The notes beneath the pieces were generated by a model. That model ran no database searches. It saw nothing but the letters and a program-made list of their open reading frames with translations, and was not told the origin of the DNA. This document shows positions 12,080 to 24,890 of a stretch of DNA of 61,929 bases, piece by piece; the stretch's first letter is position 1, and every line of letters begins with the position of its first letter. The position numbers and the translations under genes were made by a program. The DNA comes from Bacilli bacterium. Its GTDB lineage: Bacteria > Bacillota_I > Bacilli_A > RF39 > UBA660. The stretch is from contig JAGCSA010000034.1 of the NCBI GenBank assembly GCA_017964405.1, positions 1-61,929 of the forward strand, in the 5' to 3' direction.

Positions 12080-12110
12080 CAAAAAAAAATAGACTGAAAA
12101 TCAGTCTATT
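12080..12110 (-). terminator. rho-independent terminator after the HerA-like gene
   Basis: 10-bp stem AATAGACTGA (12088-12097) / TCAGTCTATT (12101-12110), followed on the minus strand by a T-run (12080-12089). Confidence 0.7.
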
Positions 12111-13659
12111 TAAAGAATTGTTTCATTAAGGTGTTTAGTCCTTTATTAATTAATTTATCAGCAGCTTTATTAGCAACTTTTTTACCTAATTTGTATTCAA
12201 TCGAATTCTTCTTAGCTTTTTCTGCTTCTTTTTTCTTTTTCTCTGCTTCTTTCTCAGCTGCTAACTTTTCTTTTTCTGCTTGTTTAGCAGCTTTTTCTGC
12301 TTCTTTCGCTGCTTTCTCTGCAGCTTTTGCTTCTTCTTGAGCTCTCTTTTCTGCTTCAATTGCCTCATATTTCTCTTTGATCATTTGATCTAACTCTTCA
12401 TAAGCAGAATCTCTTTCTTGGGCTTCTTCATATTTACCAAGAATCATAGAAGAATTAATAATCTTATTACGAGAAATATCATCTAAAACTCCCATCATAC
12501 TTTGAGGAGGTAAGATCGTAGCTTTATCAACAACAGCAGGTTCTCCATTTTCTGTTTGGAAAGAAACCAAAGCTTCTCCGGTTCCTAAAGCAAGAATTGC
12601 TTCTGTTGTATTAAATTCTGGGTTGGCTCTGAAAGAGTCAGCAGCAACTTTGACCGTTCTTTGTTCAGCAGGAGTATAAGCTCTTAGAGTATGTTGTACT
12701 CTATTTCCAAGTTGAGCAATAATCTCATCAGGAACATCCGTAGGACTTTGAGAAATAAAGTATAGACCAATTCCACGAGAACGAATTAATTTCACAACTT
12801 GTGTAATTTGTTTTAAACGATAATTTGGCATTCCATTAAATAATAGATGGGCTTCATCAAAGAAGAATACAATCTTTGGTTTATCTAAATCTCCTACTTC
12901 AGGCATCGTATTAAATAAATTGGTTAATAACCATAATAAGAAAGATGCATATAGATCAGGAGATTGGAATAATTTAACCGCATGTAAAATATTAATCATT
13001 CCTTTTCCTTCAGAATCAACCGCAATAAAATCATGAATATCTAATTCTGGTTGTCCAAAGAACATATTCGCACCTTGATTCTCAAGCGTTAATAAACATC
13101 TTTGAATAACTCCTACACTTTGGGTCGTAATATTACCATATTTCGTAATAAAGTCATTCTTGTTATCTCCTACATATTGTAGTAAAAGTCTTAAGTCTTT
13201 GACATCATCTAATTTCCAACCATTATCTTCTGCAATCTTAAAGACAATCGCAAGAACTCCCTCTTGTGCTTCTGAAAGACCAAGCATCATCGATAAGATT
13301 TCTGGTCCAACAGAATCGATTGTTGTACGAATGGGATGACCATATTCTCCAAAAATATCCCAGAAACGAACAGGGAATCCTTTGTACTCAAAATTTTCAA
13401 TTTTTAATTTGGCAAGTCTGTTATCCAAGTTTTCATTTGGAGTACCAGGAGCAGCTGTACCACCTAAATCCCCTTTTACATCTGCTAAGAAGACAGGAAC
13501 ACCTGCATCTGCAAATCCTTCTGCCATGACTTTTACAGTTGTCGTTTTTCCAGAACCACTGGCTCCCGTAATAATACCATGACGATTTGCCATCTTAGGA
13601 AGAATAGCAAATTCTTCATCTCCCTTTTTACCAATTACAATTTTTTGATTGATATACAT
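12106..13659 (-). CDS. HerA-like ATPase, DUF853 (YjgR) family
   Basis: RBS AGGAGG. Walker A GASGSGKTT and Walker B-like IVFFFDEAHLLF. Overall pattern resembles E. coli YjgR-type DUF853 proteins. C-terminal Ala/Glu/Lys-rich tail. Confidence 0.8.
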   Translation of the reverse strand: MYINQKIVIGKKGDEEFAILPKMANRHGIITGASGSGKTTTVKVMAEGFADAGVPVFLADVKGDLGGTAAPGTPNENLDNRLAKLKIENFEYKGFPVRFWDIFGEYGHPIRTTIDSVGPEILSMMLGLSEAQEGVLAIVFKIAEDNGWKLDDVKDLRLLLQYVGDNKNDFITKYGNITTQSVGVIQRCLLTLENQGANMFFGQPELDIHDFIAVDSEGKGMINILHAVKLFQSPDLYASFLLWLLTNLFNTMPEVGDLDKPKIVFFFDEAHLLFNGMPNYRLKQITQVVKLIRSRGIGLYFISQSPTDVPDEIIAQLGNRVQHTLRAYTPAEQRTVKVAADSFRANPEFNTTEAILALGTGEALVSFQTENGEPAVVDKATILPPQSMMGVLDDISRNKIINSSMILGKYEEAQERDSAYEELDQMIKEKYEAIEAEKRAQEEAKAAEKAAKEAEKAAKQAEKEKLAAEKEAEKKKKEAEKAKKNSIEYKLGKKVANKAADKLINKGLNTLMKQFFK

Positions 13660-13674
13660 AATAACCTCCTATTA

Positions 13675-15078
13675 TTATTTTTCTCCATCTAAAATATCAT
13701 CATTTCGATCGTTAATATAACGATTTTTTAATTGTTTTTTATGTTGTACTAATTGATCCACTTTTCGTAAGTTTGTAATTTCATGTTTAGTTTCTTTTTC
13801 ATACGTATGCCGAGCAGATTTATTTCTGTATTTCGCATACATCGCACCATAATAGATAAATCCACCTAAGAATAACAACAAGAATAGGATGGGTGCATCC
13901 TCATCATCTTCTGAATAAGTTGCAAAAAATAATATTAACCCTAAAATACCACAAAGTATTTCAATAATGCCCGATACGAGTAACAATAATGGTGTATTAA
14001 TCGGAACACTTCCCATGGTCTCTCCGGTTCTTGCATTGACAGCAACATAATGAAGAACTTTTTTATCTCCTTTATCCTCTTGATAACTATAAAGCCATAC
14101 CGGAAGATAAGCAGCTAACCACTGCGTACCCATCACATTAAAATACTGACTATCCCAATGAACTCCTCGATCATAGAACTTCATATCCTCATGCATCGAA
14201 AACTTCGCAACATCTTTTAATTGACGTCTCACTTTATCATTCAAATCATCGACATTGACATCTCTTCTCTCCGAAGTATAACCAACCAAATAATTGGAAT
14301 GATATTCAATACAGTTCTCCGTATCAAAAGGCATAACGGCATTGATAATATTATTGGTTTGTTCATTACTCGTTTTATCGAGTCTCATCGAATTAGATTC
14401 AATCTCTAATCCATTAACAGTAATGTCAAATTCTCTCTCTACATGATAAGAATCGGCATCATAATACGTAGTGGAATTCTTTTCATCCCCCATTGTATAA
14501 CGACGAACCAAATGTTCTGCTTCTCCTTGAAAGTTCGCATGACAATTCGCATCGACCAACATATAAGGAAAATAAACACCCATAATATTATCAGTCGTAA
14601 ATTCCTTCTTAAAAGTTGGATGGGCATAGAATTGTCTAGCTCCTACAAACTTCTTAATCGAAGATTGAGCATCTTCCTTTTTTACTTGAAAAGGCAGAAT
14701 GACATCCGGAATAGCACCATTCTCTAATTGAGAATTAATGGATAAATAACTACGGCACCAGTGACATCTTGCATGAGGAGCATTTGCCGTATCAATGACA
14801 ACTTCTGCTCCACAACCACCACATTTTAAGGTGATAACGTCATTTGCATCTTTCTTGATATCTTTTGCTCCCGATCCTTTTACCCTACCATGAAGCTCTT
14901 TGATATCTTCTACCATTCCCTCTAATTTCTTACCATCAAACTCAGAAGAACAATAATTACATCTCAATTTCCCTGATTTCGAACTAGGAACAATTTCACT
15001 TGCTCCACAATAAGGGCATTTTAATTGACCATCTTTTGCATGTTTTTTGGTATCAACAACGACCTCTTTTTCTTTCAT
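13675..15078 (-). CDS. zinc-ribbon membrane protein of unknown function
   Basis: RBS AGGAG and extended -10 TGTTATAAT upstream. Two CxxC...CxxC pairs (CPYCG...CNYC; CGGCG...CHWC), a roughly 250-aa middle domain, and two C-terminal TM helices (LLLLVSGIIEILCGILGLILFF; ILFLLLFLGGFIYYGAMY). Stop lies 15 nt before the HerA-like start. Confidence 0.65.
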   Translation of the reverse strand: MKEKEVVVDTKKHAKDGQLKCPYCGASEIVPSSKSGKLRCNYCSSEFDGKKLEGMVEDIKELHGRVKGSGAKDIKKDANDVITLKCGGCGAEVVIDTANAPHARCHWCRSYLSINSQLENGAIPDVILPFQVKKEDAQSSIKKFVGARQFYAHPTFKKEFTTDNIMGVYFPYMLVDANCHANFQGEAEHLVRRYTMGDEKNSTTYYDADSYHVEREFDITVNGLEIESNSMRLDKTSNEQTNNIINAVMPFDTENCIEYHSNYLVGYTSERRDVNVDDLNDKVRRQLKDVAKFSMHEDMKFYDRGVHWDSQYFNVMGTQWLAAYLPVWLYSYQEDKGDKKVLHYVAVNARTGETMGSVPINTPLLLLVSGIIEILCGILGLILFFATYSEDDEDAPILFLLLFLGGFIYYGAMYAKYRNKSARHTYEKETKHEITNLRKVDQLVQHKKQLKNRYINDRNDDILDGEK

Positions 15079-15775: not shown

Positions 15776-16963
15776 ATGAGAGACTTAGGAACGGTAGTAA
15801 GAGGAGTACGTACTCCCATTATTAAAGAAGGAGACGATTTAGCAACCATTGTAGTAGATTCTGTAGTAGGAGCTGCGAAAAATAATAATATTGAATTTAG
15901 AGATAGAGATGTTGTTGCCATTACAGAAGCAGTTGTAGGTATATCAGAAGGAAATTATGTTACTGTCAATACAGTATCAAAAGATATTAAGGAGAAATTT
16001 GAAAATCCAGAAGAGTTAGGAATTGTATTCCCGATTCTATCAAGAAATAGATTTTCATTAATTTTAAAAGCAATTGCGAGAAGTACAAAAAAACTATATG
16101 TACAATTATCTTTCCCATCTGATGAAGTAGGAAATGGAATATTAGATGAAGAAAAATTATATAGAAGTGACTTTACAAAAGACTCTATTATTTCAGAAGA
16201 AGAATATAGAGAGTATTTTGGAGATTGGATTCATCCTTTTACAGGAATCAATATGTTAGATTTCTATAAAGAATTAATAGAGGCAGAAGGATGTGAAGCA
16301 CACTTCTTATTATCCAATAATCCTGCTGATATTCTGAAATATACGAAAAACGTATTATCCTGTGATATTCATACGAGATATCATACCAAATATATCTTAG
16401 AAGAATATGGTGCCAAAGTATTCGGTCTATTTGATATTATGAAGGAACCAATTGGAAATAGTGGTTATAATGAAAAATATGGAATGTTAGGATCTAATAA
16501 ATCTACAGAAGAAAGATTAAAACTATTCCCAAGAACGGGACAAGCTTTAGTAGAAGAAGTTCAAAGAAGATTAAAAGAGATTACCGGAAAAACAGTAGAA
16601 GTCATGGTTTATGGTGATGGAGCATTTAAAGATCCTGTTGGATTAATCTGGGAACTAGCAGATCCAGTAGTATCTCCTGCTTATACATCTGGTCTAGAAG
16701 GAACTCCAAATGAAATTAAATTAAAATATGTATCCGATAATAAATATGCAGACTTAAGAGGAGATGCTTTAAAAGAAGCCATTAAACAAGAAATTCGAAA
16801 TAAAGAAAAAGACTTAAAAGGACAAATGATTACACAAGGAACAACTCCTAGAAGATTAACCGATTTAATTGGATCCTTATGTGACTTAACATCAGGCTCT
16901 GGAGATAAAGGAACTCCTGTTGTATGGATTCAAGGATATTTCGATAATTTAGCAGATGAATAA
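15776..16963 (+). CDS. CofE-like (F420-0:gamma-glutamyl ligase fold) protein
   Basis: N-terminus RTPIIKEGDDLATIV...RDVVAITEAVVGISEGN parallels the CofE N-terminus (LPLIKEGDDLAELI...VVCSTVISKAEGR, as I recall it). Later TGKTVEVMVYGDGAF parallels TGKRVGVIITDTNG. RBS GAAAGGTAGG. Confidence 0.6.
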   Translation: MRDLGTVVRGVRTPIIKEGDDLATIVVDSVVGAAKNNNIEFRDRDVVAITEAVVGISEGNYVTVNTVSKDIKEKFENPEELGIVFPILSRNRFSLILKAIARSTKKLYVQLSFPSDEVGNGILDEEKLYRSDFTKDSIISEEEYREYFGDWIHPFTGINMLDFYKELIEAEGCEAHFLLSNNPADILKYTKNVLSCDIHTRYHTKYILEEYGAKVFGLFDIMKEPIGNSGYNEKYGMLGSNKSTEERLKLFPRTGQALVEEVQRRLKEITGKTVEVMVYGDGAFKDPVGLIWELADPVVSPAYTSGLEGTPNEIKLKYVSDNKYADLRGDALKEAIKQEIRNKEKDLKGQMITQGTTPRRLTDLIGSLCDLTSGSGDKGTPVVWIQGYFDNLADE

Positions 16964-16988
16964 AAAAAACACCAAACGGTGTTTTTTT
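16962..16988. terminator. bidirectional rho-independent terminator
   Basis: Stem AAAAACACC (16965-16973) / GGTGTTTTT (16978-16986), loop AAAC, with A- and T-runs on both sides. Confidence 0.75.
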
Positions 16989-17187
16989 ATAAAGTTTTTG
17001 GAAATAATAGAATTCCATTCTCACGACTCATAATCGTTGTACGACGAGAATTAAGACTTAATCCTCGATTTTTAGGAACTTCATTCTTTTCCATTAGGAG
17101 ACACTTAGAGGGGGTTCTAGCAAAGTAGAGTTTCTTTGCAGAATAAAAGGTATATCTACTTGTCTCACGATTGCGAATAGCGGCCAT
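16987..17187 (-). CDS. possible small basic protein (66 aa), unverified
   Basis: ATG 9 nt after AGGAG, extended -10-like TGTAATAT upstream, and it ends at the 16962-16988 terminator. Arg/Lys-rich with no recognisable family. Could instead be a non-coding transcript. Confidence 0.3.
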   Translation of the reverse strand: MAAIRNRETSRYTFYSAKKLYFARTPSKCLLMEKNEVPKNRGLSLNSRRTTIMSRENGILLFPKTL

Positions 17188-17291: not shown

Positions 17292-17333
17292 AAATTAAAA
17301 AAGAAATAAGTCCCATTTATAAATGGGACTTAT
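17292..17333 (-). terminator. rho-independent terminator ending the lysR-rSAM-NADAR-CYTH-kinase operon
   Basis: Perfect 28-nt palindrome ATAAGTCCCATTTA/TAAATGGGACTTAT (17306-17333) overlapping the stop codon, followed on the minus strand by ATTTCTTTTTT. Confidence 0.7.
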
Positions 17334-17898
17334 CTGTTTTTATCTTTTGAAATGTTTCAGAACATACTTCTTCTAATGCTTTATTATTAGTAACATAAAT
17401 AGTACGTTTTGGATCTAATAATTGAGAAAACTCTCCTAAGAATTTTTCTCGATTCTCAAAATCATCTAAAACAACATCTAAACAATCTTTTCCTCTCTCC
17501 TGTAACCGTCTCTGTCTTGTTTCTTCATCTAATCGTACAAAGATAGTTAAATCTGGTACTAATAACTGATTTCCATAGAGATTATAATCTAAATCAACAT
17601 CAATTCCTCTAGCACGACTCGATACAACCGTATCAATTAAATAGCGAACTAGATAGACATTATGATTTTTGTAATCACAATGATTCTTAATATAATCGGA
17701 AATATAAATATCAGATGATAAATAATAAAGCATATGAGCAACCGGAGATTCATCATGAAGAGCTTCATCCATTCTCTTTCTATCAGCATACTCTGGAGAA
17801 GGAGTCTTCAATAAATAAGAACCTGGATCCATTTCGTGTAATTTCTTCGCAACAGAAGAAGTTCCACTGCCATCTAAACCAGTAACGACAATTAACAT
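17317..17898 (-). CDS. thymidylate-kinase-like P-loop nucleotide kinase
   Basis: N-terminus MLIVVTGLDGSGTSS is the Tmk/dNK-type P-loop. Size and the LVRY...DLTIFV layout fit the dTMP kinase-like fold. RBS AAGGTGAG sits directly after the preceding stop. Confidence 0.65.
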   Translation of the reverse strand: MLIVVTGLDGSGTSSVAKKLHEMDPGSYLLKTPSPEYADRKRMDEALHDESPVAHMLYYLSSDIYISDYIKNHCDYKNHNVYLVRYLIDTVVSSRARGIDVDLDYNLYGNQLLVPDLTIFVRLDEETRQRRLQERGKDCLDVVLDDFENREKFLGEFSQLLDPKRTIYVTNNKALEEVCSETFQKIKTDKSHL

Positions 17899-17907
17899 GT
17901 TCTCACC

Positions 17908-18495
17908 TTACATTCTATTTTTAATAATTTGATAGGCTTTTTTGACATCATAATCATCAGAAACCTGTAACTGATAATCTCTTAGTTCTTGAAGCATTCT
18001 CTTCTTTTCCTCTAAGATTTCTTCCTTGGAAACATTTGTATAATCATTAGGAGATTCCCATTCACAAAGAAGACCTAACTCTTCTACTTCTTGGAAACAT
18101 AATTCAACTGTTCCCTTTTGATAAACCGTAACGTCATAAGAAACATCTACAAGCTTCTGATATCCCAAAGCTTCTAATAATTGACGAGCTTTTTCAGTAT
18201 CCATGATTCCAAGATTAATCTTCTCTTCTGATAAAACCGTATCTCCATCATAAACTTTTTTCTTATACGTTAATTTTTTATATTCATCTTTTCCATCTAA
18301 ACATAAATAACGAATAATTAAAGAACGAGATAAAATATCGAGAATCGTATCTTCTCTAAGAGCTTCTTTCTCCATCGACATATATTGATCCTCTACTCTA
18401 CTTTTACGAATCACTTTAAAACCTTGATTCGTTAATACATGATCTACTTCTGATAAACTCTGTAAAACATTCGTCGTAATTTCAATTTGTTTCAT
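17908..18495 (-). CDS. CYTH-like (class IV adenylate cyclase / triphosphate tunnel fold) protein with degenerate ExExK
   Basis: TEKARQLLEALGYQKLVDVSYDVTVYQKGTVELCFQEVEELGLLCEWE parallels the CyaB-type C-terminal half (...LGY...V.GLG.F.E.E). The N-terminal signature reads QIEITT instead of ExExK. Confidence 0.5.
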   Translation of the reverse strand: MKQIEITTNVLQSLSEVDHVLTNQGFKVIRKSRVEDQYMSMEKEALREDTILDILSRSLIIRYLCLDGKDEYKKLTYKKKVYDGDTVLSEEKINLGIMDTEKARQLLEALGYQKLVDVSYDVTVYQKGTVELCFQEVEELGLLCEWESPNDYTNVSKEEILEEKKRMLQELRDYQLQVSDDYDVKKAYQIIKNRM

Positions 18496-18550
18496 TTTAT
18501 CCCCTTCCTTTCATGGATAGTATACAACTTCTTTTAAAAAAGTCCTATCA

Positions 18551-18997
18551 TTATTTTTGATATTCTTGTTGGAAAGAATCTCTTACCTGCATTAAAATCT
18601 TTCCCATATGATTTTCTCCATCAAGATTAGAACCGACTCCCCAATAAGATTCTTTCGTAGTCATCTCCCGAATTTCTTCTTTTCCGGTAGAAAGTAATTT
18701 CTCTAATATATCTGGATTCTGACGAAACTTTTCATAGACTCCTTGATACATCTTCTCAAGTTTTACATTTCGAAAATCAGGAATTCTTTTGAAACTTCTA
18801 TCTCTTCCAATTTGAGAAGCTTCTTTGGGAGTATCACAATCTAAGATTCTTTGAATAATTACCGGATCATCAAACTTACTAGCTTGGTAGAAATGTTCAG
18901 CCGTCTTATAGTAAACACCATCTACCGTAAATCCATGATTCGAATAATTCGCTAAATAACCAAGATCTCCAAACTCTTTATAAAAATCAATTGACAT
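18551..18997 (-). CDS. NADAR (YbiA/DUF1768) family protein
   Basis: LANYSNHGFTVDGVYYKTAEHFYQASKF and ESYWGVG are typical NADAR motifs. The ATG overlaps the stop of the radical SAM gene (TAATG). Confidence 0.8.
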   Translation of the reverse strand: MSIDFYKEFGDLGYLANYSNHGFTVDGVYYKTAEHFYQASKFDDPVIIQRILDCDTPKEASQIGRDRSFKRIPDFRNVKLEKMYQGVYEKFRQNPDILEKLLSTGKEEIREMTTKESYWGVGSNLDGENHMGKILMQVRDSFQQEYQK

Positions 18998-20622
18998 TAT
19001 TCCACTTCTCCTGGAAATAAATATTTGGTATTCTCATCAATTTGAATATTAAAGTTAGGAATTTCCACTCTTCTTTTGAACGATACTTGTCCTTCTACGG
19101 AAGCCGTATTAAATAAGTCTAATTGTTCTATCAATAGATTGTGATGAAAATCACAAGCAAGTAACCAAGCTGTATTTTCTTGTTTCATCGTAGAACAATG
19201 TCTTCCATAATTTCTTTCATGAGTAGGAGTTAATGGTTCATTCACAAACTTCGTAAGTCCTTTGAATAAGCTAATTGCTCTACCTAAGTTACAAATCATA
19301 CCCGTATCAATCGTAAAGTTCTTATCAAAGAACACATCAGAAGAATAACCAGCTTCTTGTAATGCTTTGATATAAGCTTCAATCAAAGGAACAACATGTT
19401 CTAAAATATAAACACTTTTTTCTTTTTTACCAATTTCTTGGTAATACTTAGAATATTCCTTTAAGATATTCACTACCTCATAGCAATCATCAAAACTACT
19501 TTGATGTACTAAATCTCTTAAAGAAAGTCCTCTTCTCTTCTTAAAATTATAGAGAGCATTTAAGAAGAATCTTTCCGTTACAATATAACCAGATTTGGTA
19601 CGAACATCCGTAGTAGGATAAATATGCATACCAAAATTACCTTCTCTTGTTAATCTAGGATCAATGGAATAATAAATACCATCTTTATTCTTAAATAAGT
19701 ATACTTCTACTTCTCTTTCAGAATTCTGTTTTTGACTGAAAAAATCTTCTATTTGTTTTTCATTTTCTACCATAAAAGGTAAATTATATTCTAAAAATTT
19801 TTCTCCATCATTCGTAAAAGATAAAGAATGATTATAAGGATCATCAATGAATGTCTCTTCTAAAGTAATATTTTCATTTTGGGATACAAATAAGTAATTG
19901 GAAACGGCTAAAACAAAATGACCATCATAATCCATTTGAATCACTTTTGCATTCTCTACTAACGGATTAAAACGTAATTCACAACACATTCTTCTACTAC
20001 CAGCACCAAATTTTTCAAAATAAATTTTATAAATGGATAAGAAGTTCGCAATATCCTTACAATATTCCTCTAAAGAACTTCTTCCATCTTTCTCTTCCCA
20101 TACACGTCCGTATTGACTAACAGAAAGACGAACTCCTCCTAATGCACAAATTAAACCCTCTCGACAGATTCGTTTGTGCATTTCATTTAATTCGTGATTG
20201 TGTCTAGAAAAACCAACCGTAGAAATACGAGTTCTAGCACCTAATTCACGATAACAAAGACTAATATATTGATCTAAGTAAGGATAAGCTGCAATATCAT
20301 TATTTAAATAAGGAAAGATAACACCAATACGATGTTCTCTTCTATCCCATGCCAAAAGTAAATCATCGTTCGTATAATTTTTCGCCGTATATTTTAACGC
20401 ACATATAACATTTCTTAGGGAAGACTCTCCCCAATATTCACTCTTACAAACAGAAAACTTACTACAAAAACTACAGTTATTAAAACATCCAACCTGTGGT
20501 TGTAAGTGTCTCATTTTCGAAACAAAGTTTTCTGGTAAATCCATAAATTCTGCATATAATTGTTTACGAATTGCTAAATCTTCTTCCGAAATTTCCTTCT
20601 CATCGTTTAATAAGAATTCCAT
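18997..20622 (-). CDS. radical SAM protein, unclassified (541 aa)
   Basis: Single CX3CX2C cluster motif in GCFNNCSFCS near aa 46-53. The ATG lies 2 nt after the lysR stop, preceded by AGAGGA. The long C-terminal region could not be placed. Confidence 0.7.
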   Translation of the reverse strand: MEFLLNDEKEISEEDLAIRKQLYAEFMDLPENFVSKMRHLQPQVGCFNNCSFCSKFSVCKSEYWGESSLRNVICALKYTAKNYTNDDLLLAWDRREHRIGVIFPYLNNDIAAYPYLDQYISLCYRELGARTRISTVGFSRHNHELNEMHKRICREGLICALGGVRLSVSQYGRVWEEKDGRSSLEEYCKDIANFLSIYKIYFEKFGAGSRRMCCELRFNPLVENAKVIQMDYDGHFVLAVSNYLFVSQNENITLEETFIDDPYNHSLSFTNDGEKFLEYNLPFMVENEKQIEDFFSQKQNSEREVEVYLFKNKDGIYYSIDPRLTREGNFGMHIYPTTDVRTKSGYIVTERFFLNALYNFKKRRGLSLRDLVHQSSFDDCYEVVNILKEYSKYYQEIGKKEKSVYILEHVVPLIEAYIKALQEAGYSSDVFFDKNFTIDTGMICNLGRAISLFKGLTKFVNEPLTPTHERNYGRHCSTMKQENTAWLLACDFHHNLLIEQLDLFNTASVEGQVSFKRRVEIPNFNIQIDENTKYLFPGEVE

Positions 20623-20624
20623 TC

Positions 20625-21518
20625 TTATTCCTCTGATGTATGATTCGTTAATAATTCGATGAATTTGTGAGTAGCCGTTGTTAAGAAATCTTCAATATAG
20701 ACACAGCAAACATCAACAGCAGGTAATTCATCTTCAAATGTAATCACCTCAAACTGATCTTGATCACTTTGTGTATCAATCACATTCTTAACAAAGTATC
20801 CAATACCAACACCTTCACGAACCATCTCCAACATAATTTCCGTTGTCCATGATTCTAATACCGGTACTAACTTGGTATTATGACTCTCCATATATTCATC
20901 TAATTTTAAACGGATAGAAGACGTAGCACTAGGAAGAACTAATGGATAATTCTTTAAATCTTCCACTTTCTTAACAGAAACATCTCCCATAGCTTTCTTA
21001 TTATATGCAAAACAGTTTTGTAATTTAGCAAGTGTTACCTTTTTAACATCTTTCTTACTGTTGATTGGTAACGTATCAACAATTAAATCTAACTTTCTCG
21101 TTTCCAACATCTCTACCATATCAGAAGTCGATTTACAAACAATCTCAAATCGAATTCCTGGATAGATCTTACGAAAATCAGAAATGAAATTAGATAAGTA
21201 GAATACTCCAATGTGCGATGGAGTTCCAATTCGAATACAACCAATATTCAAACTATTTAAATTTTTTATATGTTCTTCTGCATCATGTAAGATATTAAAA
21301 GCCGTAGAAATATAAGAGTATAATTCTTTTGCTTCCAACGTAGGTTCAATTCCCTTACTATTACGATAGAATAATGTATACCCTAATTGATTCTCTAACT
21401 CTTTTAAACTATAACTGATAGCAGGTTGAGAAACATATAATTTAGCAGCGGTTTTTGATATACTTTTTTCTTCAAATAAGTATAAGAAAATCCTATATAA
21501 ATTATAATCCGTATTCAT
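20625..21518 (-). CDS. LysR-family transcriptional regulator
   Basis: N-terminal wHTH (SISKTAAKLYVSQPAISYSLKELENQLGYTLFYR) plus a roughly 200-aa substrate-binding domain. RBS AAGGGGGA. Confidence 0.9.
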   Translation of the reverse strand: MNTDYNLYRIFLYLFEEKSISKTAAKLYVSQPAISYSLKELENQLGYTLFYRNSKGIEPTLEAKELYSYISTAFNILHDAEEHIKNLNSLNIGCIRIGTPSHIGVFYLSNFISDFRKIYPGIRFEIVCKSTSDMVEMLETRKLDLIVDTLPINSKKDVKKVTLAKLQNCFAYNKKAMGDVSVKKVEDLKNYPLVLPSATSSIRLKLDEYMESHNTKLVPVLESWTTEIMLEMVREGVGIGYFVKNVIDTQSDQDQFEVITFEDELPAVDVCCVYIEDFLTTATHKFIELLTNHTSEE

Positions 21519-21538
21519 ATGATCCCCCTTGGGGACAT

Positions 21539-21567
21539 ATTATAGGTTATCTTTATAAAAAAGTCAA
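21539..21567 (-). promoter_or_regulatory. sigma-A promoter of the lysR operon
   Basis: Minus strand reads TTGACT (21567-21562), 17 nt, TATAAT (21544-21539), about 20 nt upstream of the lysR ATG. Confidence 0.65.
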
Positions 21568-21629
21568 TTGTTATAATCATATTTTATAAAAGAAAAAAGG
21601 CACATTTTTGACACAATCACTTTCAAGAA

Positions 21630-21697: not shown

Positions 21698-23884
21698 ATG
21701 ATATCGAACAGCTATAAAGTTGGGATTGAACGTGAAGGTTTGAGAACTAACGAATCAGGCGAGTTATCAGACCGTCCACACCTGAAGGTTTTTGGTAACA
21801 GAAACACCAATGCTTTCGTTACAACAGACTTCGGTGCTGCCCAACTAGAGTTAAGAACAACACCATGTCCAACAACAAAAGAATGTTATGAAAAGTTACT
21901 AAATGTAACAAATGTAGTTCTAGAAGAATTACGGAAAGAAGGAGAATATCTATGGCCTTATAGTATGCCTTGCATCTTGCCAGATATTGAGAACTTCAAT
22001 TTCGGGGAATACGGTGACAATGTAAAAGAACATGAATATGAAATGTATCTATATAAAAAATATGGATACGAAATGTACTGTATGTCTGGAGTTCATTTGA
22101 ATTTTTCAATTAATGAGAAGTACTATAAGGAATTAAGAAAATTAAATCAAGAATTACCAGAAAAGTTAGAAGATGGTTACTTTAAAATAATCAGAAACTA
22201 TCTAAAAAGACTTTGGATGTTAATAGCACTTTTTGGGGCAACACCTAAACAGTATAAAAAAGACTATGAAGCAAATTGTTCTATTCGTAATAGTAATAAA
22301 CAAGGATTTAAAAATATTCATCTAGCAGAAGTAAACTATGATAATAAAGAAAAACATATTGCGAGTCTAAGAAAGAATATTAAAGAGGGAAATATTATAT
22401 CGATATCAGAATTATATACCCCTATCCGTATTAAGGGTAAATGGAAATATGATGTAGATGATTTAGCAAATAACCCTATTAGTCATATTGAGGTCAGAGT
22501 ACTAGATTTAAACCCATTTGATAAGACATCTGTCACATTAGAAGAAATTGATTTTATCGTAGCTTTCTTATTCCATTGTTTACTATCTAAAGAAGATGAA
22601 AACTACCCTACTTTTGATTACAGACAAGTAGCAGAAGAAGGAATGACAGAAGAACAAAAATCGTTATTAAACAAAGAAATAAGAGAAATACTAAAAACAA
22701 ATAAAATCTATGAATTAGGATTTGAAAAAAGTCTAAAGAAGATTCAAAGTGATTGTAAACAAGGAATTACTCTATCTTCTAAAGTAACACAATTAGTAGA
22801 AGAAAAAGGTTATATTAAAGCCTTAATGGATTTAGCAAAACAATATAATGAAGAAGCACATGATGCGAAATATTCTGTTATTAATTTAGGAAAGAAAATT
22901 TATGATGCACCAGCTGCTTTAGTAAGAGATGCGATTCTAAGAGGAGTAGACTACAGAGTCATGGATCATAGAGAAAATAATTCCATTATTGAATTTATGA
23001 AACATGGAAAACATGAATTTATTGTAGGAGCTACGCAAACAAGAAAAGATAATTATATTGTTCATTATCTAACAAATGATAAATTTACATCCAAAGAAAT
23101 TCTACAACAACATCGTCTAAGAGTTCCAAGAGGTATTATGATTAATAATCGTTTATCAGAAGAACAATTAGAAGATTTATATGAAAACTATGAAGAAAAA
23201 GCAATTGTTATCAAACCAAGAACCACAAATGGTGGTGTAGGAATCACCGTATTCACAACACCTCCAACTAAAGGACAATTTATAAGAGCGGTTAATTATG
23301 CATTTGAATTTGACCAAGATGTTCTAATCGAACAATATATCAAAGGAGAAGAATATCGTTTCTTAGTCGTGGGTGGTAAATGTATTAGTGTCATTAATCG
23401 AAGAAGTGCCCAAGTAATTGGGAACGGAAAATCAACAATTGAAAAACTAATAGAAGAAAAGAATAAAGAAGAATGGCACGTATTATTAGATACAAAAATC
23501 AGAATGGATTCACCATTACGTGTATTCTTAACAAAATCTGGTAGAACCTTAGAAGACATTCCCAAAAAAGGAGAAATTGTCAAACTAAGAAAGAATTCAA
23601 ACTGTTCTACAGGAGGAGAAAGTATTTCTCTAACGGATAAAATACCAGATCGTTTTAAAAGAATTGCAGAAAAAGCTGCAAAAGCATTTGAATCCTATGT
23701 CTGTGGAGTCGATATTATTATTGATGATCTAGAAGGTGAAGAATATGCCATTCTAGAGACAAACGCAGATCCAGGATATGATATTAATCAATGGCCATAT
23801 GAAGGACCGGATGCTCATATCGGTATCGAAATCTTAAAAATGCTTGGTTTAATTACTGAGGAGGATGAGATGTATGAGGAATAA
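21698..23884 (+). CDS. gshAB: bifunctional glutamate-cysteine ligase / glutathione synthetase
   Basis: 728 aa. N-terminal GshA-type motifs (VGIEREGLR, TTDFGAAQLELRT) are fused to a C-terminal ATP-grasp domain (IKPRTTNGGVGITVF, EYRFLVVGGK, NCSTGGES, ETNADPG), as in GshF of Listeria and Streptococcus. Confidence 0.9.
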   Translation: MISNSYKVGIEREGLRTNESGELSDRPHLKVFGNRNTNAFVTTDFGAAQLELRTTPCPTTKECYEKLLNVTNVVLEELRKEGEYLWPYSMPCILPDIENFNFGEYGDNVKEHEYEMYLYKKYGYEMYCMSGVHLNFSINEKYYKELRKLNQELPEKLEDGYFKIIRNYLKRLWMLIALFGATPKQYKKDYEANCSIRNSNKQGFKNIHLAEVNYDNKEKHIASLRKNIKEGNIISISELYTPIRIKGKWKYDVDDLANNPISHIEVRVLDLNPFDKTSVTLEEIDFIVAFLFHCLLSKEDENYPTFDYRQVAEEGMTEEQKSLLNKEIREILKTNKIYELGFEKSLKKIQSDCKQGITLSSKVTQLVEEKGYIKALMDLAKQYNEEAHDAKYSVINLGKKIYDAPAALVRDAILRGVDYRVMDHRENNSIIEFMKHGKHEFIVGATQTRKDNYIVHYLTNDKFTSKEILQQHRLRVPRGIMINNRLSEEQLEDLYENYEEKAIVIKPRTTNGGVGITVFTTPPTKGQFIRAVNYAFEFDQDVLIEQYIKGEEYRFLVVGGKCISVINRRSAQVIGNGKSTIEKLIEEKNKEEWHVLLDTKIRMDSPLRVFLTKSGRTLEDIPKKGEIVKLRKNSNCSTGGESISLTDKIPDRFKRIAEKAAKAFESYVCGVDIIIDDLEGEEYAILETNADPGYDINQWPYEGPDAHIGIEILKMLGLITEEDEMYEE

Positions 23885-24890
23885 TAGTACCGCAGGATTC
23901 TTAGAAAAATGTGTACTAGATGGATATCCCGCATTAGAGCCATCTACCGTATGTGTCATTAAAGCAGCAATGAAACATAACTTAAAAGTAGAAATCTTAG
24001 ATGAAGCAAGAAGCTTTATTAAAGTCTATAATGATGAACAAACAGAATATATTAAAGAAGCAACCAAGACCAGTAAAGATGTATCTACCTTCCCTTTTGT
24101 TACCGATAACAAAGAGATTGTAAAAGACATCTTAAGAGAAAATAATATTAATACTCCTAATGGTATTATCATTCAAAAAGGTCATACCAAAAGAGATTTA
24201 GATTATTTAATCGCACCATTCGTTGGAAAAAGTGTCGTGGTAAAACCAAACACAACCAATCGTGGTGTAGGAATCACTGTATTTGAAAATCCAGTTACAC
24301 AAAAAGATCTACAAGCAGCCGTTAAAAATGCTTTCAGACATGATTCTCAAGTAATAATTGAAGAATTTAAAAAAGGATTAGAATATCGTTTCCTAGTAAT
24401 TGGAGATGAATGTGTCTGTGTCATTCATAGACGTGCCGCATCTGTTGTAGGAGATGGAAAAACAAATATTAATGATTTAATTACCTTAAAGAATCAAGAA
24501 CCATGGCATGGTCTATCTGGAAGATTAATTGTAATCGATGATTCTTTAAAACAAATCTTAAAGAGACAACACTATTCTCTAAGATCTGTTCCTGAAAAAG
24601 GAAAAAGAGTTTATCTAAGAGATAATTCAAATTGTTCTACTGGAGGAGAAAGTATTGATTTAACCGATCAAGTACCAGATGAATTTAAAAGAATTGCTGT
24701 AAAAGCTGCTAAACTATTCAATGCAAAGATCTGTGGAGTCGATATCTTAATAGAAAACTTTAATAAGTTTGATTACTCCATCGTAGAATTAAATGATAAT
24801 CCAGGTATTGGTATCTGTGAATGTCCTTATGAAGGAAAAGGAAGACCAATCGGAGATTACATTCTAAGATTATTAGAATTTATTGAATAA
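23874..24890 (+). CDS. stand-alone ATP-grasp ligase, paralogue of the GshF C-terminal half
   Basis: Aligns by eye with GshF residues about 500-720 (VKPNTTNRGVGITVF, EYRFLVIGDE, VVGDGKTNINDLI, NCSTGGESIDLTD, GVDILIE, ELNDNPG). The ATG at 23874 is 9 nt after GGAGG and overlaps the gshF 3' end. Confidence 0.8.
   Translation: MRNNSTAGFLEKCVLDGYPALEPSTVCVIKAAMKHNLKVEILDEARSFIKVYNDEQTEYIKEATKTSKDVSTFPFVTDNKEIVKDILRENNINTPNGIIIQKGHTKRDLDYLIAPFVGKSVVVKPNTTNRGVGITVFENPVTQKDLQAAVKNAFRHDSQVIIEEFKKGLEYRFLVIGDECVCVIHRRAASVVGDGKTNINDLITLKNQEPWHGLSGRLIVIDDSLKQILKRQHYSLRSVPEKGKRVYLRDNSNCSTGGESIDLTDQVPDEFKRIAVKAAKLFNAKICGVDILIENFNKFDYSIVELNDNPGIGICECPYEGKGRPIGDYILRLLEFIE

Follow-up and report, generated by a model that had tools for sequence, protein, structure and literature searches.

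In the futalosine pathway and in the formation of the hopanoid side chain, a radical S-adenosylmethionine (SAM) enzyme (MqnE or HpnH, respectively) performs an adenosylation, after which a nucleosidase (MqnB or HpnG) acts. The known chemistry of NADAR proteins, such as YbiA and the ADP-ribosyl-guanine hydrolases, is the hydrolysis of a ribosyl bond to an exocyclic amine; YbiA itself is a stand-alone N-glycosidase that acts on ribosylamino-pyrimidine phosphates of the riboflavin pathway and is not known to have a radical SAM partner. C-P lyase follows a logic of nucleosidase, triphosphate hydrolase, radical SAM enzyme and kinase. Prokaryotic viperin (pVip) loci reportedly pair nucleotide kinases with a radical SAM enzyme, while the salvage of queuosine and queuine in gut Firmicutes is said to proceed through a nucleoside hydrolase and a radical SAM lyase. 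Here, we describe a five-gene operon found in a stretch of 61,929 nucleotides from a Bacilli bacterium of the RF39/UBA660 lineage (assembly GCA_017964405.1, contig JAGCSA010000034.1, positions 1 to 61,929; hereafter the window). The operon encodes a LysR-type regulator, a 541-residue protein of an unnamed family that we call X, a NADAR-domain protein, and two proteins of the CYTH and thymidylate kinase (Tmk) folds. We tentatively read it as an undescribed, LysR-controlled pathway for the processing of nucleotides or ribosylamines, probably a salvage or catabolic one, of which X and NADAR form the core. Its features are as follows.

21571..21589, minus strand: perfect dyad TTATAA-N7-TTATAA, candidate LysR operator (sequence reading)
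21539..21567, minus strand: sigma-70-type promoter of the operon, TTGACT-17-TATAAT (11/12 match)
20625-21518, minus strand: LysR-type transcriptional regulator, 297 aa, first gene of the operon (open reading frame (ORF) list and Pfam)
18997-20622, minus strand: X, radical-SAM-like Fe-S protein, 541 aa, unnamed family (ORF list; CX3CXFC at C46/C50/C53)
18551-18997, minus strand: NADAR-domain protein, 148 aa, YbiA type, putative N-glycosidase (PF08719, TIGR02464)
17908-18495, minus strand: CYTH/triphosphate-tunnel-fold protein, 195 aa, with QxExT for ExExK (predicted fold and Foldseek)
17317-17898, minus strand: Tmk-fold P-loop protein, 193 aa, without the Walker-A lysine (GLDGSGTSS) (PF02223)
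17304..17335, minus strand: intrinsic terminator with a 14-bp stem, a 4-nt loop and a T-run (hairpin scan of the sequence)

The five ORFs are consecutive on the minus strand (17317-21518) and run from promoter to terminator. Read from the sequence, the lysR TAA is separated from the ATG of X by two nucleotides (ga), and the stop of X overlaps the NADAR start in TAATG. A gap of 55 nt with a strong ribosome-binding site, GGAAGGGG, lies between the NADAR and CYTH-like genes, and the TAA of the latter is followed by nine nucleotides (ggtgagaac) and the ATG of the Tmk-like gene, whose final codons are overlapped by the terminator hairpin (17335..17304). An earlier reading of this DNA made without database searches (the sequence-only reading) had described five minus-strand genes with a promoter, a terminator and tight junctions, as well as the motifs GCFNNCSFCS in X, MKQIEITT in the CYTH-like protein and GLDGSGTSS in the Tmk-like protein; all of these are present where it placed them.

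The locus shares part of its logic with each of the systems introduced above. As in pVip loci, a radical-SAM-type enzyme stands beside a P-loop kinase-fold protein (PADLOC model VakA, E 1.9e-13) with a common nucleotide theme. In contrast to pVip, X has no viperin similarity in PADLOC, Pfam or NCBIfam and carries an additional C-terminal region of about 310 residues, the invariant partner is NADAR rather than a kinase, the kinase-like protein lacks the Walker-A lysine, and the locus is predicted to be LysR-regulated and is chromosomally stable. The operon NADAR aligns over its full length with Escherichia coli YbiA (2b3w) and passes TIGR02464; unlike YbiA, it is either translationally coupled to X or part of one protein with it, and most relatives carry it as a fusion with a DHH phosphoesterase. 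The succession of a radical SAM enzyme and an N-glycosidic-bond hydrolase recalls MqnE/MqnB and HpnH/HpnG, and MqnE (6xig) is among the fold matches of X, weakly and without significance (E 0.53). Unlike NADAR, however, the nucleosidases of those systems have the MTA/SAH-nucleosidase/PNP fold, no menaquinone or hopanoid genes lie near the operon, and its phosphate-handling partners have no counterpart there. Queuosine salvage likewise combines a glycosidase with a radical SAM enzyme and recovers a base from a modified nucleoside, which is an analogy only: X and NADAR match no named queuosine model in NCBIfam or Pfam, and the operon holds no tgt or transporter genes. The CYTH-like protein has the predicted eight-stranded tunnel fold of triphosphate tunnel metalloenzymes such as SaTTM (7ns9), CyaB (2fjt) and thiamine triphosphatase, from which it differs in having QxExT for ExExK and in missing the curated sequence cut-offs. 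The parallels with MqnE/MqnB, HpnH/HpnG, queuosine salvage and C-P lyase may serve as leads rather than as tests. In the literature library searched, nothing was found that links the NADAR domain with radical SAM enzymes or describes the cluster, most matches to 'NADAR' being an author surname.

X belongs to a rare family. It has no match in Pfam, NCBIfam, PADLOC or PHROGs, nor by phmmer among PDB sequences, consistent with the remark of the sequence-only reading that about 350 of its residues could not be placed in a characterised subgroup. An exhaustive profile search recovered 205 clusters among 1.84 billion representatives, and the few of its 386 word-indexed homologues that bear source names are called 'hypothetical protein'. 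GCFNNCSFCS (C46, C50, C53) is the only CX3CX2C motif in X, and its C46-x3-C50-x-F52-C53 form places an aromatic residue before the third cysteine, as the radical SAM motif demands. Seven cysteines (C46, C50, C53, C59, C213, C444 and C490) are invariant in 27 close homologues; across 58 members at 22-50% identity, C46, C50 and C53 are at least 90% conserved and no other cysteine is kept, the further conserved positions including G45, S54, Y105, D109, R165 and S167. The Q-x-GC-x3-C-x-FC-S segment resembles the cluster loop of RlmN and Cfr, and a conserved FPYL(D/N)ND segment follows strand β2. Window X itself does not match the radical SAM profile PF04055 at E<=0.1; when the 58 members were scanned singly, 31 gave sub-threshold matches (best E 1.1e-4) that span the cysteine motif and cover at most profile positions 2-98.

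The AlphaFold2 (AF2) model of X (mean predicted local distance difference test score, pLDDT, 78.5; predicted template modelling score, pTM, 0.83) alternates strands and helices over residues 37-218, with the motif placed after the first strand (37-41), and has a β-rich and helical C-terminal region behind this N-terminal domain. The C-terminal region, about 310 residues, is without detectable relatives in sequence and structure searches. Among the best Foldseek matches of the model is LipA (4u0p), a weak one (E 0.052, probability 0.77), and other weak matches are DesII, NosL, PFL activase and a phage radical SAM protein (probability 0.80, root-mean-square deviation (rmsd) 5.0). The matches of highest probability (0.63-0.80) include radical SAM enzymes, and the TIM barrels of GH10 xylanases score similarly. 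Against PDB sequences, a profile of the N-terminal domain found only RlmN, at the cysteine motif (E about 1.3), and hhalign comparison with two radical SAM proteins encoded next to a distant X homologue (locus L053) aligned 30 columns at the cysteine motif only, with a probability of 45%. A full-family profile matched only designed 'Cake' propeller repeats through N-x-DG-x-YY, a spurious match that was set aside. On the motif, the sub-threshold profile matches and the weak fold match, X is likely to be a very divergent radical SAM enzyme, and it would then add to a known superfamily a new family, found in a gene context that is new as well.

The NADAR protein matches PF08719 (E 9.6e-32, 110.9 bits against a cut-off of 35.1), which confirms the sequence-only identification, and TIGR02464 (106.9 bits against a curated cut-off of 73.7). 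It aligns with YbiA at E 2.7e-21 over residues 3-142, including the EH-x-x-Q and YWG segments, and with the NADAR-domain protein 8bau only at 2.9e-5. Judged from its sequence, it is unambiguously of the YbiA type and a putative N-glycosidase. A YbiA-type NADAR follows X in all 36 non-redundant Firmicutes loci with at least 40% identity to window X, and four of the 58 aligned X-family members carry a NADAR domain, two of which were confirmed as fusions at their loci. X and NADAR are the invariant core of the cluster in Firmicutes.

The partners of X were compared in 95 loci gathered from genomes and metagenomes and annotated by iterative profile searches and Pfam. The 55 non-redundant loci with a full-length X, binned by identity to window X, distribute as follows.

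At least 55% identity, 24 loci: NADAR 24, LysR 24, DHH fused to NADAR 22, CYTH 2, Tmk-like 2, Gre factor 0, NUDIX 4
40-55% identity (Clostridia), 12 loci: NADAR 12, LysR 1, DHH fused to NADAR 1, CYTH 10, Tmk-like 11, Gre factor 10, NUDIX 2
Below 40% identity, 19 loci: NADAR 2 (both fused to X), LysR 0, DHH fused to NADAR 0, CYTH 0, Tmk-like 3, Gre factor 3, NUDIX 3

The commonest architecture is LysR-X-NADAR::DHH, without kinase, Gre factor or CYTH. The DHH domain fused to NADAR stands in for CYTH and Tmk in 22 of the 24 close Bacilli relatives, and the five-gene arrangement of the window is a minority variant. The set of X, NADAR, CYTH and Tmk recurs in Clostridia at about 45% identity, in the order Tmk-X-NADAR-Gre-CYTH. 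The sequence-only reading had treated these four genes as a unit and had proposed synteny as a check. The quartet is indeed found again with its order changed, and X adjoins NADAR in each of the 36 non-redundant loci, but the conserved unit is X plus NADAR, most close relatives using the DHH fusion. Elsewhere, dNK-type kinases with a normal GxxGxGKT motif lie directly after X in at least four loci below 40% identity (L071 and L078 among them), and NUDIX adjoins X in L055, L095 and on a Streptomyces plasmid, where X is a fragment. In L070, a CYTH gene with canonical ExExK (EFEAK) is followed by Tmk with the threonine variant described below, Gre and X. Gre-factor homologues are found in 10 of the 12 Clostridial loci and in L045, L049 and L070, and the acidic tip motif is kept in 21 of 22. 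The cluster never lacks a gene for a transcription factor, be it LysR, a Gre factor or a winged helix-turn-helix (wHTH) protein. Its phosphate-handling partners can stand in for one another, and the regulator varies by lineage.

Three loci show further variation. In L007 (9084-10544), from one close relative, a class I/II aminotransferase gene (PF00155, 8.7e-31) lies between the NADAR and CYTH-like genes. A 36%-identical X homologue in L053 (796-9865) belongs to a different cluster without NADAR, together with a B12-binding radical SAM gene, two more radical SAM genes, a FecCD-type ABC transporter, HisG and a HAD hydrolase. In L047 (1161-11342), a 31%-identical homologue, again without NADAR, has a sugar-nucleotide-like context: an NAD-dependent epimerase, a family-2 glycosyltransferase, an APH-type kinase, NUDIX, two phosphodiesterase-family genes, a LigT-like 2',5'-ligase-fold gene and a Fic-like protein.

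The two remaining proteins of the window operon have altered motifs. The CYTH-like protein falls below sequence cut-offs (17.2 against 23.2 bits for Pfam CYTH, PF01928; 51 against 57.95 bits for TIGR00318, E 1.5e-13). Its AF2 model (pLDDT 93.2) matches SaTTM 7ns9 in Foldseek at E 3.4e-10 (TM 0.69/0.75), at the head of 63 PDB matches at E<=1e-3, with PH1819, 1yem and CyaB 2fjt also among the leading ones. It begins with MKQIEITT, and 118 of 120 homologues have KQ[IV]E[IV]T, i.e., QxExT for ExExK; of the invariant basic and acidic residues, several are retained, including the E145-x-E147 pair. QxExT is a conserved variant and not a sign of decay, and the sequence-only reading was right both on the CYTH fold and on the loss of ExExK. 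A stand-alone QxExT CYTH-like gene occurs in a very common gut bacterium (L051 and L052, 8001-8612; more than 100 contigs) with no X nearby, flanked by ABC exporter genes on one side and by tRNA synthetase and SAM synthetase genes on the other. The Tmk-like protein matches PF02223 (8.2e-12, 45.6 bits against a cut-off of 27) and stays below the dTMP kinase equivalog TIGR00041 (44 against 83.25); it also matches the PADLOC models PDC-M51B (2.1e-25) and VakA. Its GLDGSGTSS aligns to the GIDGSGKST of 3hjn and 2pbr, with threonine at the Walker-A lysine position, as in all 116 homologues that have the motif and in all loci. The Tmk-like fold proposed by the sequence-only reading stands, but GLDGSGTSS is not a canonical P-loop. 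Because the Walker-A lysine is absent in all homologues, kinase activity is doubtful.

The regulator carries HTH_1 (PF00126, 1.2e-16, residues 6-63) and LysR_substrate (PF03466, 7.3e-26, residues 93-293) domains and reaches no NCBIfam equivalog (best 121 bits against a cut-off of 250). An OxyR-like redox role, prompted by the redox neighbours of the locus, was dropped since no named LysR equivalog was reached. A LysR orthologue lies immediately upstream of X in all 24 loci with at least 55% identity. TTGACT-17-TATAAT (21567..21539) is the sole 11/12 match in the region; as the number of promoter-like matches equals the shuffle expectation, the scan proves nothing by itself, and the evidence is comparative: identical hexamers with the same 17-nt spacing precede the LysR orthologue in 24 of 28 non-redundant loci, and the sequence farther upstream was seen on inspection to vary among them. 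Three nucleotides upstream of the -35 hexamer, the window has a perfect dyad of the T-N11-A type, the site form used by LysR-type regulators. The dyad is present at the same position with at most two mismatches in 25 of the 28 loci, a count weakened by the AT-rich background, in which such dyads easily arise by chance, and a third half-site, TTATAAA, lies inside the promoter spacer in 24 of the 28. LysR, its promoter and the dyad (21571..21589), a candidate LysR operator, are conserved across Bacilli. Control by LysR, as the sequence-only reading proposed, would be limited to the Bacilli branch; Clostridial and distant loci have a Gre-factor homologue instead. No riboswitch or other known RNA was found in the leader or the rest of the window at Rfam gathering scores, and the Rfam matches downstream of the operon are at chance level.

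Every recurrent partner of X belongs to a type whose substrates or ligands are nucleotides, nucleosides or phosphoribosyl-N compounds. The model that we tentatively favour is one in which a [4Fe-4S] cluster on C46, C50 and C53 of X would cleave SAM to yield a 5'-deoxyadenosyl radical, which would act on the base or the ribose of the substrate and there set off a rearrangement or break a bond. The translationally coupled NADAR would then hydrolyse the ribosyl-N bond, releasing ribose phosphate and the free heterocycle, or might instead act just before X. The partner proteins would handle the phosphate tail. Here, these are the triphosphate-tunnel-fold and Tmk-fold proteins. Given the replacement of a phosphate-contacting lysine by threonine in both, they may not work as a classical triphosphatase and kinase but serve to bind, hand over or trim a phosphorylated form of an unusual kind. 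In most relatives, this job would fall to the DHH phosphoesterase fused to NADAR. LysR, presumably co-transcribed, would turn on expression when the substrate or an intermediate is present, allowing gut anaerobes to salvage or catabolise a nucleotide that is unusual or modified. The analysis shows how genes and signals are arranged, which domains and folds the proteins have, which motif changes are conserved, that X is linked to NADAR and that the other partners are exchanged; that X cleaves SAM, in which order the enzymes act, what kind of substrate they use and which way the pathway runs is what we infer here. The carriers are uncultured gut metagenome-assembled genomes (MAGs) labelled Bacilli, Mollicutes or Erysipelotrichaceae, and it is because of this carriage, of LysR control and of the interchangeable hydrolases that salvage or catabolism appears the likeliest function. 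The proposal of the sequence-only reading, a candidate undescribed nucleotide pathway, is supported: X scores strongly to no characterised family, and the four genes are syntenic in other genomes.

A number of results weigh against this model. No significant sequence or structure match links X to radical SAM enzymes. Indeed, the PF04055 matches of its relatives reach 13-17.5 bits against a gathering score of 29.5 and, where inspected, mostly extend barely past the cysteine motif; Foldseek against the PDB and viral libraries returned nothing at E<=1e-3, with E-values of 0.05 or worse, and no canonical GGE SAM-binding motif was seen in X. From the radical SAM call of the sequence-only reading, the motif is retained, but a significant profile or structure match did not follow. 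Moreover, some distant X homologues have no NADAR nearby, the CYTH-like family is also found alone, away from X, and residues central to catalysis or phosphate binding are missing from both the Tmk-like and the CYTH-like protein, which makes their enzymatic roles uncertain. Simple salvage leaves a bona fide Gre factor with an intact acidic tip unexplained, and nothing in the data separates salvage from biosynthesis. The lack of significant matches and of a GGE motif also speaks for the alternative that X does not cleave SAM and that its CX3CX2C motif holds a structural, redox-sensing or non-radical catalytic Fe-S cluster. The operon would then carry out hydrolytic nucleotide housecleaning, with X as an Fe-S accessory protein, perhaps tied to the adjoining redox-stress genes. 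Such neighbours are found (gshAB-like in the window, desulfoferrodoxin in 10 loci, glyoxalase, glutaredoxin/ArsC-like), but they change by lineage and lie outside the operon. We consider this alternative quite unlikely, given that the motif has radical SAM spacing and an aromatic residue before the third cysteine, follows β1 of a predicted β/α domain, contains the sole cysteine set conserved across the family and looks like the RlmN/Cfr cluster loop, and that radical SAM enzymes are among the weak fold matches of sensible rmsd in each of two independent libraries, together with GH10 TIM barrels in the PDB. In another alternative, a ribosylamino-pyrimidine or aminoimidazole ribotide (AIR) would be the starting point for making or recycling a heterocyclic cofactor or metabolite, with chemistry like that of flavins, deazaflavins, pterins or benzimidazoles. 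X would perform radical ring chemistry and NADAR would remove ribose 5-phosphate, as YbiA does on riboflavin intermediates. TIGR02464, whose cut-off NADAR exceeds, is the 'riboflavin biosynthesis intermediates N-glycosidase' model, YbiA is the closest solved relative, an AIR-synthase-family gene lies directly upstream in the distant locus L045, HisG and three further radical SAM genes surround X in L053, and a CofE-family (F420_ligase) gene adjoins the operon in the window and in L007-L009. Yet X is unlike the CofG/CofH, ThiC, BzaF, MoaA and QueE models of Pfam and NCBIfam, the CofE-like and AIR-synthase neighbours are not conserved across the X family, the CofE-like gene is convergent and beyond the terminator, and the operon holds no other cofactor-pathway genes. 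The exchangeable phosphohydrolases (DHH, CYTH, NUDIX) suit disassembly better than biosynthesis, and the cofactor hypothesis is decidedly improbable.

The cluster might also make an antiviral or antibacterial nucleotide analogue in the manner of viperin, X turning a nucleoside triphosphate into a modified, e.g., chain-terminating, nucleotide. The kinase-like protein would supply the nucleotide or bind it, surplus product would be broken down by NADAR, CYTH, DHH or NUDIX so as to protect the producer, and the Gre factor, present with its acidic tip intact in most Clostridial loci and in L045, L049 and L070, would rescue the host RNA polymerase from 3'-blocked transcripts. A kinase beside a radical SAM enzyme is the pattern reported for prokaryotic viperin, accessory proteins match the PADLOC candidate defence models PDC-M51B, VakA and PDC-M42C (2.8e-18), the NCBIfam anti-phage NADAR model matches at 3.8e-20, and one IMG/VR contig carries X followed by NUDIX. 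X, however, has no PADLOC viperin match at E<=1, its best defence model being the unrelated HEC-01B at E 0.021, and the anti-phage NADAR match reaches 71.8 bits against a cut-off of 240. X is also absent from 50,697 phage genomes, and its loci, rather than sitting in defence islands, keep a stable chromosomal synteny with genes of housekeeping and redox functions. With the commonest architecture containing neither kinase nor Gre factor and the Tmk-like protein lacking the Walker-A lysine, analogue production seems unlikely. A related possibility is a signal derived from a nucleotide, which the cluster would both make and degrade and which LysR or a Gre-like secondary-channel factor would read, as for ppGpp and DksA. 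Paired putative synthetic and hydrolytic enzymes typify second-messenger systems, the cluster always encodes a transcription factor, and the CYTH fold includes class IV adenylate cyclases, consistent with the TIGR00318 score and with CyaB among the fold matches. The CYTH-like protein nevertheless lacks two of the three ExExK residues, the commonest architecture is devoid of CYTH, no sensor or effector domains of the signalling type are present, and we know of no precedent for a radical SAM step in second-messenger synthesis; this reading is very improbable. The unexplained Gre factor keeps a viperin-like or signalling function open, and one can also imagine that X founds a viperin-independent route to an RNA-polymerase-directed nucleotide, either a chain terminator or an alarmone-like molecule. 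The Gre factor, with its catalytic acidic tip, would then protect or reprogramme the producer polymerase, NADAR, CYTH, DHH or NUDIX would set the level of the nucleotide, and the lysine-to-threonine changes would reflect an altered phosphate or ribose-5' end, a speculation that we regard as improbable.

If nucleotide or ribosylamine processing by X and NADAR, the reading we favour, is correct, a new radical reaction on a nucleotide-type substrate can be expected. What is new about the locus is a rare family, covered by no curated model, that joins a radical SAM cluster motif to a large domain without structural relatives, and its almost obligatory partnership with a putative NADAR N-glycosidase. 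Many uncultured Bacilli and Clostridia from human and animal guts carry the cluster, and in such bacteria nucleoside salvage and modified-nucleotide chemistry are poorly mapped. The exchangeable partners (lysine-less Tmk with QxExT CYTH, DHH, NUDIX, dNK) offer an experimental handle on the substrate and the conserved candidate LysR operator a handle on the inducer, while the recurrent Gre factor raises a possible link to transcription.

The locus is chromosomal. A mobile or phage origin was rejected on the lack of phage matches, the even GC content across the window and the flanking genes shared by the X loci of related species; the two Streptomyces plasmids found carry only a gene fragment of X, and a single IMG/VR contig carries X. 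The following features surround the operon.

23865-24890, plus strand: second ATP-grasp gene, overlapping the preceding gshAB-like gene, resembling the GshB/cyanophycin-synthetase half
21698-23884, plus strand: bifunctional GshA/GshB-like gene, divergent from the operon (NF002688, 555.8 bits)
16987..17187, minus strand: small conserved ORF, 66 aa, with its own ribosome-binding site, directly past the terminator (homologues)
15776-16963, plus strand: F420_ligase (CofE-family) protein, 395 aa, convergent with the operon (Pfam)
12106-15078, minus strand: HerA-like helicase gene (PF05872, 8.5e-187) and the adjoining gene for a 467-aa protein

The 66-aa ORF may be associated with the operon. In 10 further Bacilli loci, homologues with 31-57% identity immediately follow the final gene of the operon in the same orientation, irrespective of whether that gene is Tmk or NADAR::DHH; they share the motif LYT[FY]YSAKKIYF...SL.SRNT..IS..NG.LLFPK, and the ORF has no Pfam match. 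The CofE-like and gshAB-like neighbours were dropped as pathway members since they are conserved only among the closest species. Redox-stress genes recur beside the locus: the position upstream of LysR, held by the gshAB-like gene in the window, is occupied elsewhere by desulfoferrodoxin (10 loci), glyoxalase, DUF4186 or glutaredoxin/ArsC-like genes. The Pfam match of the CofE-family protein extends over far more than the 218 positions of the model, and its gene has the same position in L007-L009, with no other F420 genes seen nearby. Farther downstream, the HerA-like gene adjoins one whose 467-aa product contains several zinc-ribbon motifs of the CxxC type and, towards the C terminus, hydrophobic segments.

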